From contig CM059431.1 in NCBI GenBank assembly GCA_030390025.1, positions 134,356,001 through 134,420,000 on the forward strand: a DNA stretch of 64,000 nt. The letters run 5' to 3'. Positions within the stretch are counted from its first letter, which is position 1; each line of letters opens with the position of its first letter. The position numbers and the translations under genes are program-made. Below are positions 2,279-38,727 of this stretch, in pieces. Under the pieces are notes generated by a model. It saw only the letters and a list, made by a program, of their open reading frames with translations. It was not told the origin of the DNA and did no database searches. The DNA is from Squalus acanthias. Lineage: Eukaryota.

Positions 2279-2910
2279 GTAAGTTTGTACATATACACAG
2301 TATTGGGGTTCTAATACTTTTTGGTTTTGCCTTTTAACCCACTGTGTCCATTGATGATTTGTTGCATCTATACATAACTTGTGCTACTTTCATGCCAGTT
2401 TAAAACACTCTCAAATGGAGCAGAAATTATCAATTGCCTATACAAAAAATATTCTTTGGCTGTTTCGGTGGATCAGTTAATATGCATGGAGATCTATTCA
2501 GACTATTTTTATTTGTAGTCAGTCCTTCAGAAATGAAAAATAAACAAGACCAAGATCAGTTTCTTCCCCACTGCCTAGAAAGAGAAATTATAGAAGATAT
2601 ATAGAAATCTCTATTAGGGCTCCCATGGTGTTGCTCACCAGTGATTTGGAGAATATGCAGTTCCTTAACAATTGTCATATGGAAGTTTACCAATTTACAG
2701 TCACTGACTAAGGCAGTGATGCCAGAACAAATAATCCTCCTCCCGCCCCCCCCCCCCCCCATGTTGCCAAACTCCTGCATCCCACCCCAGTTTTCAGGTT
2801 ATCCACAACGATTGTCCCTAGTGTCACCAAAGCATCGGACCGCTAATACAGCTGCATGTTTTTTTAATTTAGCAAATTCTTTGTCATTATTTGTGAGTGA
2901 TCAATTTAAG

Positions 2911-3492
2911 GAAAGAAATAATTGCATTTAAAGAGTGCCTTTCACAACCTCTGGACACCTCAAAGTGCTTCATAGGCAATTAAGTACTTTTGAAGTGTCA
3001 CTGTTGTAATTGTATTGAAAGATGGCTGCCAATTTGCACACAGCAAGGAGGCTAGATAAGCATATGAGGGAGAAGGGAATAGAGGGTTATGCTGATAGTT
3101 AGATGAGAAAAGACCGGAGGAGGCTTGAGTGGAGTATAAACGCCGGCATGGACTGGTTGGGCCGAATGGCCTGTTTTTGTGCTGTATATCCTATGTATGT
3201 AAATGATCAGATAATCTGTTTGTGATGTTGGTTGAGGAATAAATGCTGGCCAGGACACTGGAAGAACTCCCCTGCTCTTTGAATGGAACCATGACATCTT
3301 TTAGGGCCATTGAGAGAGCACACGGAGCCTCCGTGTAACGCCTTATCCGAAAGACACCTCAGGCAATGCAGCGCACTCTCAGGACTGCACTGGCGTGCCA
3401 GCCTAGATTATGTGCTTGAGTCTTTGAGTGGGGCTTGAACCTTGATCCTTTGACTGAGGCAGGAGTGCTACCATTAAGCCAAGGCTGACACC
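2911..3492 (-). mobile_element. Deu-domain SINE, with a short + strand CR1 3' end inserted at ~3048-3200
   Basis: Reverse-complement match to the 895-1350 SINE; the insert ends gggccgaatggcctgtttttgtgctgtatatcctatgt. Confidence 0.75.
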
Positions 3493-20761: not shown

Positions 20762-21712
20762 TACAGTATGCAGACGACACTTGCGTCTGCGCTCACTCGG
20801 AGGTCGAACTCCAAACCATCGTCAATACCTTCACTGAAGCGTACGAGAGCATGGGCCTTACACTAAACATCCATAAGACAAAGGTCCTCTATCAACCTGC
20901 CCCCGCCACACAGTACTGCCCCCCGATTATCAAAATCCATAACGTGGACCACTTTCCATACTCGGGAGCCTACTGTCAACAAGGGCAGACGTCGACGAAG
21001 TCCAACACCGCCTTCAGTGTGCCAGTGCAGCCTTCGGTCGCCTGAGGAAGAGAGTGTTTGAAGACCAGGACCTCAAACTAAGCTAAGCTCATGGTCTACA
21101 GAGCAGCAGTGATACCCACCCTGCTGTATGCCTCAGAGACATGGACCATGTACAGCAGGCACCTCAAAGCACTGGAGAGGTACCACCAACGCTGCCTCCG
21201 CAAGATCCTGCAAATCCATTGGCAGGATAGGCGCACCAACGTCAGTGTTCTCGCTCAGGCCAACATCCCCAGCATCGAAGCTTTGACCATGCTCAATCAG
21301 CTCCGATGGATGGGTCACATTGTCCGCATGCCCGATACGAGACTCCCAAAACAAGCGCTCTACTCGGAGCTCCGGCACGGCAAGAGAGCCCCAGGTGGGC
21401 AGAGGAAATGCTTCAAGAACACCCTCAAAGCCTCCTTGAAAAAGTGTAACATCCCCACCTGGGAATCCCTGGCCCAAGACCGCATAAAGTGGAGAAGTAT
21501 CCGGGAAGGCGCCGAACACCTCGAGTCTCTTCGCCGGGAGCAAGCGGAAGCCAAGCGCACGGAGCGCATGTCAACCCAAGCACCCCACCCACCGTCTGCC
21601 CCATCTGTGACAGAGTCTGTAGGTCCCGCATTGGACTCATCAGTCACCTGCGAACTCATTTTTAATGTGGAAGCAAGTCATCCTCGGTTCCGAGGGACTG
21701 CCCAAGAAGAAA
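20762..21712 (+). mobile_element. RTE-clade LINE, 5'-truncated at the YADD motif
   Basis: Starts cagtatgcagacgac (QYADD); ORF 21091 has LLYASETW...QLRWMGH; TGGTAGTAAT occurs on both sides. Confidence 0.9.
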
Positions 21713-21813
21713 TTGAGATTGGTAGTAATAGGTGTAATGCCTCGATATCTTACCTGTAACTATTGTGAGAAGTCGCACAACACCAGGTTATAGTCCAACA
21801 GGCTTATTTGAAA

Positions 21814-21850
21814 TCACAAGCTTTCGGAGCGCTGCTCCTTCGTCAGGTGA
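21814..21850 (-). ncRNA. Minimal type I hammerhead ribozyme (Penelope pLTR)
   Basis: Minus strand UCAC-CUGACGA-A-GGAGC-AGC-GCUCC-GAAA-GCUU-GUGA; palindromic AAGCUU stem III. Confidence 0.75.
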
Positions 21851-22183
21851 AGTGAAGAGAAACATATAGGCACAGCATATATAGTCAGAGAACAATGCCA
21901 GATGATTACAGTTAATCTTTCCAACTGCCCTTTATCACACCTTGGCAGAGATAATCACGGCAATCAAAGGTGTGGATGGTGTCCAAACAGGTCTTGCATC
22001 TCTGTAGAAACTTGATGTCTGGTCGATATGCGCGATCTTCTTGGAGATCCTCTCCACTTTGAGCCGGCAGTTTGTGGTGTCGATAGTAGCCATGATGTGG
22101 AGATGTTGGACTGGGGTGGACAAATGTGAGAAGTCGTACAACACCAGGTTATAGTCCAACAGGTTTATTTGTATCTCTTCACT

Positions 22184-22220
22184 TCACCTGACGAAGGAGC
22201 GGCGCTCCGAAAGCTTGTGA
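22184..22220 (+). ncRNA. Minimal type I hammerhead ribozyme (inverted pLTR), sense to the DNAJC3 pre-mRNA
   Basis: UCAC-CUGACGA-A-GGAGC-GGC-GCUCC-GAAA-GCUU-GUGA; AATAAA at 22226-22231. Confidence 0.75.
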
Positions 22221-23224
22221 TTTCAAATAAACCTGTTGGACTATAACCTGGTGTTGTGCGACTTCTTACCTGTAACTAATAGTAATCCTATAACCTGCTC
22301 TTATTTACCTTGAAACCATAGCCAGAAATCACTTACCCCATTACTGCCTGCTCCTCTCTTGGTGCTTCTCCTACTTACCATGTTTCTTCTGCTGCTGTTC
22401 CCAGCTCTGCAGAAAACATTGATCCTCACATCCAACCCATTGCCCAGTCTCTATCTCTCCCACAGACTCCATTCCCCATTTCTTAACCTCCCCCTGCCCC
22501 CAATTCTCCAGTCTCCATCTCTCCATCGGCCCTTGTGGTCTCCCCGATTGGTGATTCCTGAGACCCACCCAGACTCCCAGCCCTCAAGTGTTCACAACAC
22601 CAGATGGCCCTGGCTCTCTGCGGTGGTGGGGTGACGTTACCAGGCCGGAAGTGGAAAATTACACCACACCATGGAGCCCATTGCAACTGGCACCTGATTG
22701 CAAACTGAAGGGGAGGTAGAGCTGTGTCTGAGTTCATTCACCCTGTACAAGGACAGACTGCAGTGCTGACATGTATGGGCGAACTGGCGATTGAAATTGG
22801 GCACTAGCACTCGGGAGAGGTACTGGTGATTTCAGGAGACTCTAGCCGTAACATGAGGACCCTAGGTTGCACCCCAGTTTCATTTAGCCAAAAAATTTGT
22901 TTTCTAATATTTAATCCTCTTGCTTTCACCTCTACTTTCAGAATTAGAAAGTATTGTCACTTTATGGTTGCACTGGAGCTCTCACTGATCATAGATCATA
23001 CCAAATCCTCATGCCAATCTCAGCAGGTATTTGCTTTATATGGTCTGAAGGCAAGCACAGTCACTAAAATGCAGTTGCCATGTGGCTTATTAAAGTATAT
23101 TATGTTACTACTATCTAGCTGGCAGGAAACCAGGGTCAATTAAAGGTTCCTAGGTACCCCTGAATGTGATGTCGTAGAGATTTGTGTCACTCCTAAACCA
23201 AAAGTTCTATATCTTCTGCTGGAA

Positions 23225-24724: not shown

Positions 24725-27005
24725 CATAAGAACATAAGAAATAGGAACAGGAGTAGGCCATTTGGTCCCTCGAGCCTGCTCTGCCATTCAATAGGATCAT
24801 GGCTGATCTGGTCTTGGCCTCAACTCCACTTTCCTGCCCGCTCCCCATAACCCTTGACTCCCTTTATCATTCAAAAATCTGTATCTCCACCTTAAATATA
24901 TTCAATGACCCAGCCTCCACAGCTCTCTCGGGAAGAGAATTCCAAAGATTCACGACCCTCGGAGAGAAAATTCCTCCTCATCTCCATTTTAAATGGGTGA
25001 CCCCTTATTCTGAAACTATGCCCCCTCGTTCTAGATTCCCCCACGAGGGGAAACATCCTCTCTGCATCTACCCTGTCAAGCCCCCTCAGAATCTTATACA
25101 TAGAAGATAGGAGCAGGAGTAGGCCATTCGGCCCCTCGAGCCTGCTCCGCCATTCGATGAGATCATGACTGGTCATCTAAACTCAGTACCCTATACCTGC
25201 CTTCTCCCCATATCCCTTGATACCTTTAGCTTTAAGAAATATATCTAACTCATCCTTGAATATATTTAATGACTTCGCCTCAACTACCTTCTGTGGTAGA
25301 GAATTCCACAGGTTCGCCACTCTCTGGGTGAAGAAATTCTTCCTCATTTCTGTCCTAAATGGTTTACCCGTTATCCGTAGTTTATGACCCCTGGTTCTGG
25401 ACTCTCTGACCATCGGGAACATTCTTCCTGCATCTAGTTTGTCCAGACCTGTCAGAATTTTATATGTTTCGATGAGATCCCCTCTCATTCTTCTATACTC
25501 CAGTGAGTATAAGCCCAATCGACCCAATCTCTCCTCATATGTCATTCCTGCCATCCCAGGTATCAGCCTTGTGAATCTTCGCTGAACTCCTTCCATGGCA
25601 AGAACATCCTTCCTCAGATAAGGCGACCAAAACTGCACACAGTACTCAAGGTGTGGTCTCACCAAGGCCCTGTACAACTGCAGCAGGACATCCCTGTTCC
25701 TATACTCAAACCCTTTCGCTATGAAGGCCAACATACCATTTGCCTTCTTCACCGCCTGCTGCACCTGCATGCTTACCTTCAGCGACTGGTGCACAAGGAC
25801 ACCCAGGTCTCGTTGCACTTCCCCTTCTCCCAATCTATTGCCATTCAGATAATAGTCTGCCTTTCTGTTTTGGTAGATTACATCCACTATCTCTGCAGCC
25901 ACTTCTTTTAAGACCCTAGGATGCAGGCCATCTGGTCCAGGGGACTTGTCTACCTTTAGTCCCATAAGTTTGCCGAGTACTTTTTCTCTAGTGATAGTAA
26001 TTGTTTTAAGTTCCCCCCTCCCTATAGCCCCTTGATTATCTATTATTATTGGGATGCTTTTAGTGTCTTCTACTGTGAAGACCGATACAAAATATTTGTT
26101 CAGAGTCTCAGCCGTTTCCCATTATTAATTCCCCAGTCTCATCCTCTAAGGGACCAACATTTACTTTAGTAACACTTTCTTTTTATATACCTGTAGAAGC
26201 TCTTACTGTCTGTTTCTTTATATTTCTTGCAAGTTTACTCTCATAATCTATCTACTCTTTATTATTTTCTTAGTCATCCTTTGCTGGTTTCTAAAAATTC
26301 CCCAATCCTCTGGCCTACCACTAATCTTCACATCATTGTATGCCTTTGTTTTCAATTTGATACCATCCTTAACTTCCTTAGTTAGCCACGAATGGTTCAT
26401 TCTTCTCTTAGTTTTTCTTTCTCACTGGAATATATCTTTGCTGAGAGTTATGAATTATCTCCTTAAATGTCTGCCTCTGCTTATCTACTGTCTTACTCTT
26501 TAACCTATTTTCCCAGTCTACTTTAGCCAACTCTTGTCTTCATACCTTTGTAATTGCCTTTATTTAAGTTCAGGACACTAGTTTGAGACCCAAGTTTCTC
26601 CCCCTCAAACTGAATTTGAAATTCTAACCTATGATCACTCTTCCCTAGAAGATCCTTTACTATGAGATCATTAATTAATCCTATCTCATTACAGATTACC
26701 AGATCTAAATTAGCCTGCTCCCTGGTTGGTTCCACAACGTATTCTAAGAAACCATCCCGAATACACTCTATGAACTCTTCCTCAAGGCTATCTTTGCCAA
26801 TTTGATTTGTCCAATCTATATGAAGATTAAAATTGGCCATGATTATTGTAGTACCTTTCTTACAAGCTTCCATTATTTCTTGATTTATACTCTGTCCTAC
26901 AGTGTAGCTACTGTTAGTGGGCCTATAGACTGCTCCCACCAGTGACTTCTTTCCCTTTATTATTTATTAACTCCACCCAAACTGATTCTACATCTTGATC
27001 TTCTC
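24725..27005 (-). mobile_element. CR1 LINE with a young CR1 3' fragment (25099-25870, minus) replacing part of its RT
   Basis: Chimeric ORF 25183-25965; APE remnant ORF 26523-26939; 3' tail cataagaacataag at 24725. Confidence 0.88.
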
Positions 27006-29033: not shown

Positions 29034-31287
29034 TCCAACATTCGATGGAATCTGGAACTGTACCCATGGATTGGAGGGTAGCTAATGTTACCCCACTATT
29101 CAGAAAGGGTGGTAGAGAGAAAGTGGGGAATTACAGACTGGTAAGCCTGACATCGGTAGTGGGGAAAATGCTAGAGTCCATTATAAAGGATGTAATGGCC
29201 CAGAAATTCACTTCTCCGGCTTGCCGTGGGGGTAAGGATCGCGCGCGCACTTACCTACCGCGCCTGCCGTTGTGTTTTGGGCCCACGGGAACTTCGGGTC
29301 CTGGGCCTCTCCCAACTGCCGGCGCGCAGTGCGTGCGTGTCCCAGGGGCGCAGTTAGTGCGATGTGTCCCCTGGGATCACGTGGGCCATGGAGAGCCAAT
29401 GGCAGCAGACCATCTTTCATTCATAGATTTGACCGGAGACCTGTCAAATCTGTGAATTGAAATCGGCCCCAAAAGAACAGCTAAACTTATAATAATTTTT
29501 TTTTTAAACCCATCACATTTATAAAATAACTATAGTTAAATAAATTAACCACTTTAAACAAAAACTTATATTTTTGAAAAAATTTAAATACTTTTTAAAA
29601 GTGATAAAAATAAACTTAACCTTTCTTTAAAGTATCTAAAAAAAGATAAACCTGTTGAGAAAAAATTTAAATTATACTTAATTAACCACTTACCTTGTTG
29701 AAAACGGGTCCTGCGCCTCCTTTTTTTTTATAAGTGTAGGTTCTTCACTACTTACCCTCCCGTAGAAACCTGAAAAAAAATCTAAGTTTGCTGCGTGCAC
29801 GCAGCCTCTACCGCGCACGTGGTTCACCTAGGAACCGCCCCCTTCACCATACCGGAAGTTCCGGTTTCCCGCGCATGCAGGAAACCGGCACTTCGGGACG
29901 CTTTACGGGTGAGTACGGACTGTGTACTCACCCGGGAAGGGCCGAATTTTTGGCCCAAGCTGAGCACTTGAAAAACAGTGACAGGATCGGACAAAGTCAA
30001 CATGGATTTACAAAAGGTAAATCGTGCTTGACTAATCTACTGGAATTTTTTGAGGATGTAACTGGGAAAATAGATAAGGGAGAACCAGTAGATGTGGTGT
30101 ATTTGGACTTTCAAAAGGCTTTCGATAAGGTCCCGCATAAGAGATTAGCGTGTAAAGTTAAGGCACATGGGATTGGGGGCAAGGTATTGACTTGGATAGA
30201 GAACTGGTTGGCGGACAGAAAGCAGAGAGTAGGAATTAATGGGTCTTTTTCCGAGTGGCGGGCAGTGACTAGTGGGGTACCGTAGGGATCGGTCCTTGGA
30301 CCCCAGCTGTTCACAATATACATTAATGATCTAGATAAGGGAACTAAATGTAATATCTCCAAGTTTGCAGATGACACAAAGCTGGGTGGGCGTGTGTGCA
30401 GCGAGGAGGATACCGAGAAATTCCAGTATGATTTGGACAGGTTGGGTGAGTGGGCAGAAGCGTGGCAGATGCAATATAACGTGGATAAATGCGAGGTTTG
30501 GTGTCAAAAACAGAAAGGCAGACTATTATCTGAATGGCAATAGATTGGGAGAAGGGGAAGTGCAACGAGACCTGGGTGTCCTTGTGCACCAGTCACTGAA
30601 GGTAAGCATGCAGGTGCAGCAGGCGGTGAAGAAGGCAAATGGTATGTTGGCCTTCATAGCGAAAGGGTTTGAGTATAGGAACAGGGATGTCCTGCTGCAG
30701 TTGTACAGGGCCTTGGTAAGACCACACCTTGAGTAGTGTGTGCAGTTTTGGTCGCCTTATCTGTGGAAGGATGTTCTTGCCATGGTAGGAGTTCAGTGAA
30801 GATTCACAAGGCTGATACCTGGGATGGCAGGAATGACATATGAGGAGAGATTGGGTCGATTGGGCTTATACTCGCTGGAGTATAGAAGAATGAGAGGGGA
30901 TCTCATCGAAACATATAAAATTCTGACAGGTCTGGACAAAGTAGATGCAGGAAGAATGTTCCCGATGGTCGGAGAGTCCAGAACCAGGGGTCATAATCTA
31001 AGGATAAGGGGTAAGCCATTTAGGACTGAAATGAGGAAGAATTTCTTCACCCAGAGAGTGGTGAACCTGTGGAATTCTCTACCACAGAAGGTAGTTGAGG
31101 CCAAGTCATTAAATATATTCAAGAATGAGTTAGATATATTTCTTAAAGCTAAAGGTATCAAGGGATATGGAGAGAAGGCAGGTACAGGGTACTGAGTTTG
31201 GATGATCAGCCATGATCTCATCGAATGGCGGAGCAGGCTCGAGGGGCCGAATGGCCTACTCCTGCTCCTATCTTCTATGTTTCTATG
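29034..31287 (+). mobile_element. CR1 LINE, young subfamily, interrupted by a Harbinger-like MITE
   Basis: RT motifs; TAGAT on both flanks (29029-29033, 31288-31292). Confidence 0.9.
29197..29956. mobile_element. PIF/Harbinger-like MITE (CpG-rich ends, AT-rich core)
   Basis: TIRs GGCCCAGAAATTC / GAATTTTTGGCCC (11/13); interrupts the CR1 reading IIKDV..AEHLKN; left flank AAT, right flank imperfect. Confidence 0.75.
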
Positions 31288-37793: not shown

Positions 37794-37946
37794 CTAAAAT
37801 CTAACCCCAATGAGAAAGAAGAAAATGAAGCAAAGTCCCAATTAACTAAAGCAGATGAATTGCAACGGATGATTACGCAGGCACGAGCTGCATTTGAACA
37901 ACAGGATTACACAGCTGCAATTGAATTCCTAGACATTCTGATTGAG
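37794..37946 (+). CDS. DNAJC3: DNAJC3 coding exon (exon 5 equivalent), GC donor
   Basis: ttttcag| acceptor; 153 nt; LKSNPNEKEENEAKSQLTKADELQRMITQARAAFEQQDYTAAIEFLDILIE; donor GAG|gcaagt. Confidence 0.93.
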
Positions 37947-38727
37947 GCAAGTTTTAGCTATACTTATTCATAGGAAATAGAGCATAGAATGATATAGCTG
38001 ATGGGGAAGAACTCTCTTCCACTATTTTATCATTACTCTATAGGAAATAACAATTGCACAGCTGTGCATTCCTGTAATTTAATTAGCTGGTTGTTGATTA
38101 CAGATGGAAAAGAAGCCATTTTTTTTTTGTAATTGGAATTTCAGACCCATGTTCTCCGATTTGACCCTTTATCAACCTCTGTAACCATGGAACAGTGCAA
38201 TTTACCTATTTGCATAGAACCTTTCTCCCCTTCTCAACCCCCTGCCTCCCCCATCTTTTTTTAATCATTCTATTACCCATTTCTTTTGTGTTGATCTGTT
38301 TCATTGCTGTAAATCTATTTAATATTTCTACTCTTGGAAGTCCCATTATCAATTTTTCATTTTATAACTCCTGACCTTCCAAGAATCCTCATTTTACCCA
38401 TTGTACAAATACACCTTGCTAATGTTGCATTCTGATATTGCATCAGTACACCTGTCCTTTATTTTGCTTAGCTTTTTCTGTAAATGGACATCTGTAACCT
38501 TGTACTATGCAGACCAATGTTAATGCTCTGTGTATAGACATTTGAAGGTTCTTGTATGTTTTTACATAGGTATTGGCGACACAATTTTGAAAACTAAATA
38601 CTTATTAATTTTAATAATCTTATGGAAGCCGAAATAAATCATCATATGGCCTGTATTAAATGGGGCGGGGGGGGGGGGGGGGAAATCTCTGGAAAATTCC
38701 TCCTGGTTGACTGGGATTTATTATCGG

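Follow-up and report, generated by a model that had tools for sequence, protein, structure and literature searches.

The insert and its host intron

The 64,000-nucleotide stretch of Squalus acanthias DNA analysed here (the window) carries a 501-bp insert at positions 21763–22263, in an intron of DNAJC3. The intron lies between plus-strand exons at 2204–2278 and 37794–37946, and the exon that follows the second of these matches DNAJC3 structures in the PDB (E 1.6e-27). We take the flanking exons to be exons 4 and 5, and the intron to be intron 4, numbering by analogy with the human gene, since exons 1 and 2 could not be located. The downstream exon has an apparent GC splice donor (37946–37948).

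Perfect 15-bp direct repeats, which cannot be extended, bound the insert on the left (21748–21762) and on the right (22264–22278). The target of insertion is part of another repeat family (24 matches with at most 2 mismatches). Paralogous empty sites in this family carry the 15-mer once (4 of 4 copies examined, with a 1-nt difference in two) and then run into sequence resembling the right flank (21–27 of 30 nt identical), so the 15-bp duplication arose at insertion. This older dispersed repeat occupies 21712–22360 and directly follows the tail of a high-copy LINE-like repeat that ends near 21711. Among the joints listed from public-run contigs, we found neither an insert junction nor an empty-site joint. 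Repeats swamp the insert in these contigs, and the run presumed to be RNA does not cover the right flank.

The pieces of the insert were mapped on a real full-length copy of the parent element, L067 (ATG = +1, core C3 = 3013, cut after 3041, pLTR end 3095, tail end 3131). Read on the minus strand, they correspond to reference positions 3049–3131, 1–103 and 2864–3095, preceded head to head by an inverted segment, 2991–3094. The first piece comprises a pLTR 3' half (22125–22171), which begins roughly 8 nt past the hammerhead cut and has neither promoter motifs nor a ribozyme, and the pLTR tail or leader (22094–22124), with a 6-nt deletion relative to the close copy L044. It is followed by the first 34 codons of the parent ORF (+1 to +103; 21992–22093), with a 1-nt deletion relative to L044. 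At 21992–21993 the sequence passes from ORF +103 to the 3'UTR, 149 nt upstream of the hammerhead core, through a 2-nt microhomology; this junction is private to the insert. The third piece (21763–21993) consists of parent 3'UTR and 3' pLTR and stops at the first of the family's 3'-end sites. It aligns to L044 with 226 identities, 4 mismatches and 2 gap nucleotides, and contains a TATA-like motif (21876–21883), an Inr-like motif (21849–21855) and a minimal type-I hammerhead antisense to DNAJC3, identified by its core and predicted fold (21814–21850), all on the minus strand. On the plus strand, the inverted, 5'-truncated pLTR arm (22170–22266, its final 3 nt overlapping the target-site duplication) is identical to L044 at 96 of 97 positions. 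It includes a second minimal type-I hammerhead, sense to DNAJC3, with a predicted cut after 22216 (22184–22220), and an AATAAA (22226–22231) that is a standard part of the family pLTR. Across all pieces the insert differs from L044 by 6 substitutions and 3 small deletions, a sequence divergence that is as expected for a young copy decaying neutrally.

Both hammerheads have an intact core, a stem I of 4 bp, an extra A before a stem II of 5 bp, and the palindrome AAGCUU in the helix III region, the combination that defines the minimal hammerheads of Penelope-like elements (PLEs). An Rfam scan of the insert gave no match to a hammerhead model, and its miRNA matches were below the gathering score and reflect the hairpin.

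The original prediction had described a 501-bp insert with a perfect 15-bp duplication in DNAJC3 intron 4, the minus-strand order of pLTR tail, about 34 ORF codons, a jump at about 21991, 3'UTR, hammerhead and pLTR, an inverted pLTR copy with a second hammerhead, and two intact cores with the extra A and AAGCUU. Each of these features stands at the coordinates given above.

A young Penelope-like parent

Genome searches with the insert and its ORF piece returned many matches at 93–98% identity. Six long copies were fetched, five with an open ORF of 888–896 amino acids and one frameshifted (817 amino acids). Judged from these sequences, the parent belongs to the Penelope-like elements, is young and has intact ORFs, in line with the Penelope origin proposed beforehand. 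Patterns built on the hammerhead core (30 nt) and on the ORF start (25 nt) matched the genome 17,065 and 101 times, respectively.

The family protein has a reverse transcriptase (RT) domain (Pfam RVT_1, E 1e-8), and its nearest named homologues are shark proteins (80–94%). Two further features, a CX4CxxC linker and a core resembling GIY-YIG that has two Cys residues, were read from the protein sequences; Pfam did not detect GIY-YIG in the family protein itself and did so in the homologue P0024. The Neptune and Nematis clades are defined by a CX2-5CxxC linker between RT and endonuclease in the accessible text of PMC8557442, and the parent would be of Neptune/Nematis type by this motif alone. 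A Poseidon-type label was dropped, as the linker motif is against it. The features of endonuclease-bearing (EN+) Penelope elements are present: one ORF with an RT followed at the C terminus by a GIY-YIG endonuclease, the latter as read from sequence; a pLTR with an optional 30–40-nt tail, visible as two 3'-end clusters; and, in the insert, an inverted 5'-truncated copy with a target-site duplication.

Sister Penelope subfamilies (L233–L244) account for 8,594 matches to a variant pattern. They share the core and show compensatory changes in stem I, with U or C at position 17 and a loop II of 3–5 nt, and TATA and TCACT are kept around divergent spacers.

Layout and ends across the family

We examined the layout of the family on contig C1, where the first 100 matches to the core gave 83 loci after neighbours were merged. 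An inverted arrangement occurs in 66 of these 83 position-ordered loci, two opposed hammerheads in 47 and a 12–15-nt target-site duplication in 53. Two opposed hammerheads are the family's commonest product and no special trait of the insert. Genome-wide, 2,676 core junctions lie head to head within 30 nt. A head-to-tail junction from the tail to the promoter start was matched only once in the genome, and simple head-to-tail re-initiation of this kind was rejected. The commonest family product is a MITE-like palindrome in which a short and a tailed pLTR end are joined head to head and flanked by a 12–14-bp target-site duplication; there are at least 2,676 exact junctions, with examples of about 200–230 bp each at L073, L075, L142 and L145.

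After removal of one more duplicate, 82 loci with 150 arms remained for end statistics. The 3' ends of the arms form two clusters about 40 nt apart, at ATG−55 to −31 (78/150) and ATG−3 to +16 (66/150). At the 5' side, 89 of the 150 arms end 0–11 nt upstream of the core, with a mode of 22 arms at −7. This position is the A of the Inr-like motif, the commonest stop of family cDNAs and a putative RNA 5' end, and the TATA-like motif lies 30 nt upstream of it, with comparable spacing in the sister subfamilies. These motifs suggest a promoter. As a possible trace of a cap, a G precedes 15 of 26 untemplated stops at this putative start, but neighbouring positions are G-biased too. The hammerhead cut site had been suspected as the 5' end of templates, the internal piece of the insert beginning about 8 nt past it. 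Since only 3 of the 150 arms start at the cut site, this idea is unsupported and templates appear to be mostly uncleaved. Reading the list of 5' starts by eye also gave no clear peak there, a reading confounded by microhomology in stem I. Family cDNAs thus stop at a promoter-like site and not at the ribozyme cut.

In each of the 56 simple head-to-head pairs, one outer end is short and the other tailed, indicating two fixed start sites, one per target end. For 24 of the 56, neither arm lies wholly within its partner, which speaks for two cDNAs and against fold-back copying. The insert departs from this end rule, as both its outer ends are short; a few other jump-bearing loci are likewise. Its right arm is contained in the first segment of the left arm, and with this nesting fold-back copying may have occurred at this locus. 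As a whole, the family preserves an extensive fossil record of an integration mechanism that is poorly understood.

Recurrent jumps from the ORF start

A count of genome copies of the insert's junction had been set as a check beforehand, and a junction unique to this locus had been named as a refuting outcome; that outcome was obtained. The junction pattern with a free gap of 0–25 nt has three genome matches, two of which have different junctions, and the exact junction occurs once, at this locus. The class of jump is common. The 101 ORF-start matches represent 99 distinct records, of which 57 run on through the ORF and 34 jump to the 3'UTR; another 3 jump to a different place in the ORF, and the remaining 5 stop in flanking sequence. 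The ORF-to-3'UTR jumps show 0–5 nt of microhomology or a few extra bases. Their recurrence supports the earlier suggestion that the insert could be a record of template jumps.

A more upstream anchor, for which 30 of 135 matches were examined, gave further junctions. We collapsed the 46 pooled junction records by hand into 40 insertions with 38 different junctions, removing repeats inside one insertion and a locus assembled twice (L223/L229). Two junctions are common to unlinked loci (L062/L231 and L246/L252), and given this sharing some mini-templates may propagate. Jump donors lie mostly at +72 to +82 and +98 to +129, a clustering that is partly an artefact of the anchors (+74 to +98 and +31 to +55).

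In each of four insertions one private junction is present twice: as a tandem in L112 (1362–1992) and L223 (726–1242), and in both opposed arms in L222 (861–1369) and L062 (1214–1800). Arms that belong to a single insertion also agree at a variable site in 38 of 44 pairs, where 57% would be expected (0 of 10,000 permutations). The doubled junctions and the sharing between arms suggest that templates were end-joined or reused, or circular, away from the ribozyme cut site. In appearance, L112 and L223 resemble nascent retrozyme dimers of about 300 nt. Searches for earlier descriptions in the openly accessible literature found no title or abstract on the ORF-to-3'UTR jump class or on end-joined templates.

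A subclass of six loci (L246, L250, L251, L252, L268 and L272) joins ORF +72 to +82 to the putative transcription start; in three of them the joint contains an untemplated G that may derive from a cap. At G000:C13:76289782-76327650, three inverted pairs of ORF-start anchors occur within 38 kb, perhaps by local duplication of one rearranged insertion.

Origin of the insert

We think it probable that the insert is one decayed copy of an abundant Penelope-like element with an endonuclease, produced in a single event in which each nicked target strand primed a cDNA and one cDNA likely jumped template. The parent family, the piece map, the target-site duplication, the unique junction and the family-wide layout statistics were observed directly, and from them we infer the following steps. 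First, the GIY-YIG endonuclease would nick the target strands with a stagger of 15 nt. Second, the left end would prime a cDNA at the pLTR end, copying 231 nt into the 3'UTR. Third, the left cDNA would jump by the 2-nt microhomology to ORF +103, where such jumps cluster, and copy back through the ATG and the tail, stopping just short of the hammerhead. Fourth, the right end would prime a second cDNA of about 100 nt. Fifth, the two cDNA ends would be joined head to head. Sixth, the copy would have decayed neutrally since. A jump during reverse transcription and a deletion already present in the source DNA or RNA are indistinguishable by sequence alone.

The third step, and only this step, would differ if the junction had already existed in the template, either as a one-off end-joined (circular) RNA or through repeated end-to-end jumping on a short linear RNA that begins in the 3'UTR, crosses the hammerhead and ends at ORF +103. 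We regard this as a possibility of secondary weight. It would account for the four independent insertions with the same private junction twice (L229 being L223 on another contig) and for the variable site shared between arms; the insert itself amounts to about 1.1 turns of a unit of about 371 nt, and the clustered donors fit as well. However, this locus has the junction only once, and the donor clustering is in part the anchor effect noted above. A circle made by the ribozyme is not indicated, because no jump among the 34 has its landing point at the hammerhead cut.

It is rather unlikely that the insertion was originally full length, with an inverted pLTR, and that about 2.76 kb was lost afterwards through a microhomology-mediated chromosomal deletion. 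The layout is that of a full copy minus its middle, with a 2-nt microhomology at the joint, the copy has three other small deletions, and such deletions are invoked for copies in Adineta in the available sections of PMC3846280. Against this, the breakpoints of about 40 insertions are concentrated around the ORF start and in the last 300 nt of the 3'UTR, only 3 of the 99 ORF-start records have their jump inside the ORF, and independent DNA deletions would not double one junction in each of four insertions.

The original prediction also offered a family of mini-Penelope or retrozyme elements, non-autonomous and mobilised in trans, with the insert as one member. We consider this very improbable. 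The insert does keep a pLTR, a hammerhead, a tail and the ORF start, which are possible cis signals according to the accessible part of PMC11167929, and non-LTR retrozymes have been proposed to derive from pLTRs (bioRxiv 10.64898/2026.07.22.740005, as far as available). But the junction has a copy number of one in the assembly, and the two hammerheads are opposed instead of forming a direct tandem. Moreover, the piece upstream of the junction has neither TATA and Inr motifs nor a ribozyme, and since these motifs are missing the locus would have no promoter of its own for a junction-spanning RNA. The hammerhead is also of the minimal class and not of the canonical type of described retrozymes.

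The insert may be one instance of something broader. Tentatively, we propose that the Penelope RT routinely joins both ends of short pLTR-spanning RNAs, by circularisation or by end-to-end jumping, and without ribozyme cleavage. The 5' ends of these RNAs would fall within the 3'UTR or coincide with the promoter start, their 3' ends would lie at ORF +70 to +130, and the approximately 40 private junctions would map the ends of protein-bound RNA. The insert would then be one fossil of the birth of retrozymes from Penelope elements, a possible route between the two. The fold of the pLTR-ORF RNA was nothing special (z = +1.23). With intact young ORFs available, the two start sites, the cDNA stops at a promoter-like site and the recurrent jumps lead to direct predictions that a Penelope assay in vitro could address. 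The locus itself is ordinary, a one-off stub among many thousands of dead copies; its layout is already published and it matters little, and the recurrence of jumps to the ORF start is a property of the family.

Ribozyme folding and the host transcript

The inverted repeat of the insert is 104 nt long and 95% complementary, and the pLTR hairpin that had been suggested for the pre-mRNA is predicted as a duplex of about 100 bp enclosing the sense ribozyme and the AAUAAA. In the predicted equilibrium fold of the whole insert, stems I and II have a probability of 0.0 and most of the AAUAAA is paired. If only a local hairpin of 46 bp forms, the ribozyme stems are predicted in its loop, with probabilities of about 0.98 for stem II and about 0.84 for stem I, and the AAUAAA is fully paired. 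The left arm is transcribed first in the host pre-mRNA. Each strand of the locus has one sense ribozyme and no cis dimer partner; when two hammerheads are co-folded, the predicted minimum pairs stem II between the molecules.

Stem I covaries among the sister subfamilies (C-G to U-G to U-A), so the element selects for the hammerhead fold. The intact cores at this locus need no selection, given the 17,065 matches and a divergence of about 2–3%. In the accessible text of PMC4209133 a single minimal hammerhead shows no in vitro cleavage, and in that of PMC11167929 the anole ribozyme required the element's protein. As modelled, the hammerheads are passengers of the pLTR and at this locus most likely do nothing.

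An intronic ribozyme or polyadenylation site used by the host, truncating or regulating DNAJC3 pre-mRNA, is therefore hardly credible: it could draw on a hammerhead and an AATAAA with a GU-rich tract in sense orientation, on the stems predicted in the local fold and on a motif under selection in the element, but the predicted whole-insert hairpin would bury both ribozyme and AAUAAA, the local fold would still pair the AAUAAA, the ribozyme is single on its strand, a lone minimal hammerhead did not cleave in vitro (PMC4209133) and the anole ribozyme depended on its protein (PMC11167929) in the parts of these sources available, and the intact cores are explicable without selection. The cleavage or polyadenylation site envisaged in the original prediction is accordingly not upheld by the modelled folds.

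Comparison with described elements

The closest published layout is that of Adineta Pen2/Pen2a, for which the available sections of PMC3846280 describe an insertion with inverted pLTRs, a 10-bp target-site duplication and an internal microhomology deletion (general scheme in the accessible part of PMC8557442). Common to both are direct pLTR pieces around ORF sequence, an adjoining inverted 5'-truncated pLTR with a target-site duplication, TATA and TCACT motifs within the pLTR, and a derived copy that is deleted internally at microhomology. Unlike Pen2/Pen2a as described there, the family here is of shark type with a CX2-5CxxC linker (Neptune/Nematis by motif alone), the insert has no outer tail at either end, and the deletion class occurs about 40 times with clustered breakpoints. 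A TATA-less internal promoter is described for Drosophila Penelope in the portion of PMC2377424 available, in contrast to the TATA-like motif here.

Metazoan PLEs carry opposed minimal type-I hammerheads 100–700 bp apart (Cervera and de la Pena 2014, PMC4209133, in its accessible sections). The shark motifs agree with these in the extra base between positions 9 and 10.1, the G10.1–C11.1 pair, the short helix I, the palindromic helix III region and the opposed pairs. They differ in a stem II of 5 bp, against 7–8 bp in the Schistosoma motifs, and in U at position 17.

In vitro, the Anolis Poseidon element PAc cleaves and extends both target strands, has two internal start sites and uses uncleaved RNA (Frangieh et al. 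2024, PMC11167929, as far as its accessible text goes). The two 3'-end clusters about 40 nt apart correspond to two start sites bounding the tail, and most arms here cross the cut site. By analogy, the shark insert may have arisen as in the anole system, with one template jump added on the left cDNA. PAc belongs to a different clade, however; the shark hammerhead sits 119 nt upstream of the ATG, with no overlap between the two, and the jumps to the ORF start found here are not reported in the available sections on PAc.

Metazoan non-LTR retrozymes consist of direct tandem units with canonical type-I hammerheads, are multicopy and are expressed as circles, according to the accessible parts of PMC7229834 and bioRxiv 10.64898/2026.07.22.740005. 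The insert resembles them as a short, non-coding, hammerhead-bearing and pLTR-derived sequence with a long target-site duplication. It is distinguished from them by one sense ribozyme per strand instead of a direct tandem of at least two hammerhead units, by a unique junction instead of a dispersed multicopy family of the same unit, and by a minimal hammerhead instead of a canonical type-I one with loop 1–loop 2 contacts.

The same DNAJC3 intron also contains two LINE-like pieces (25098–25871 and 30507–31280) in inverted orientation, 97% identical over 774 nt and 4.6 kb apart. This pair could give a far longer duplex than the Penelope stub.
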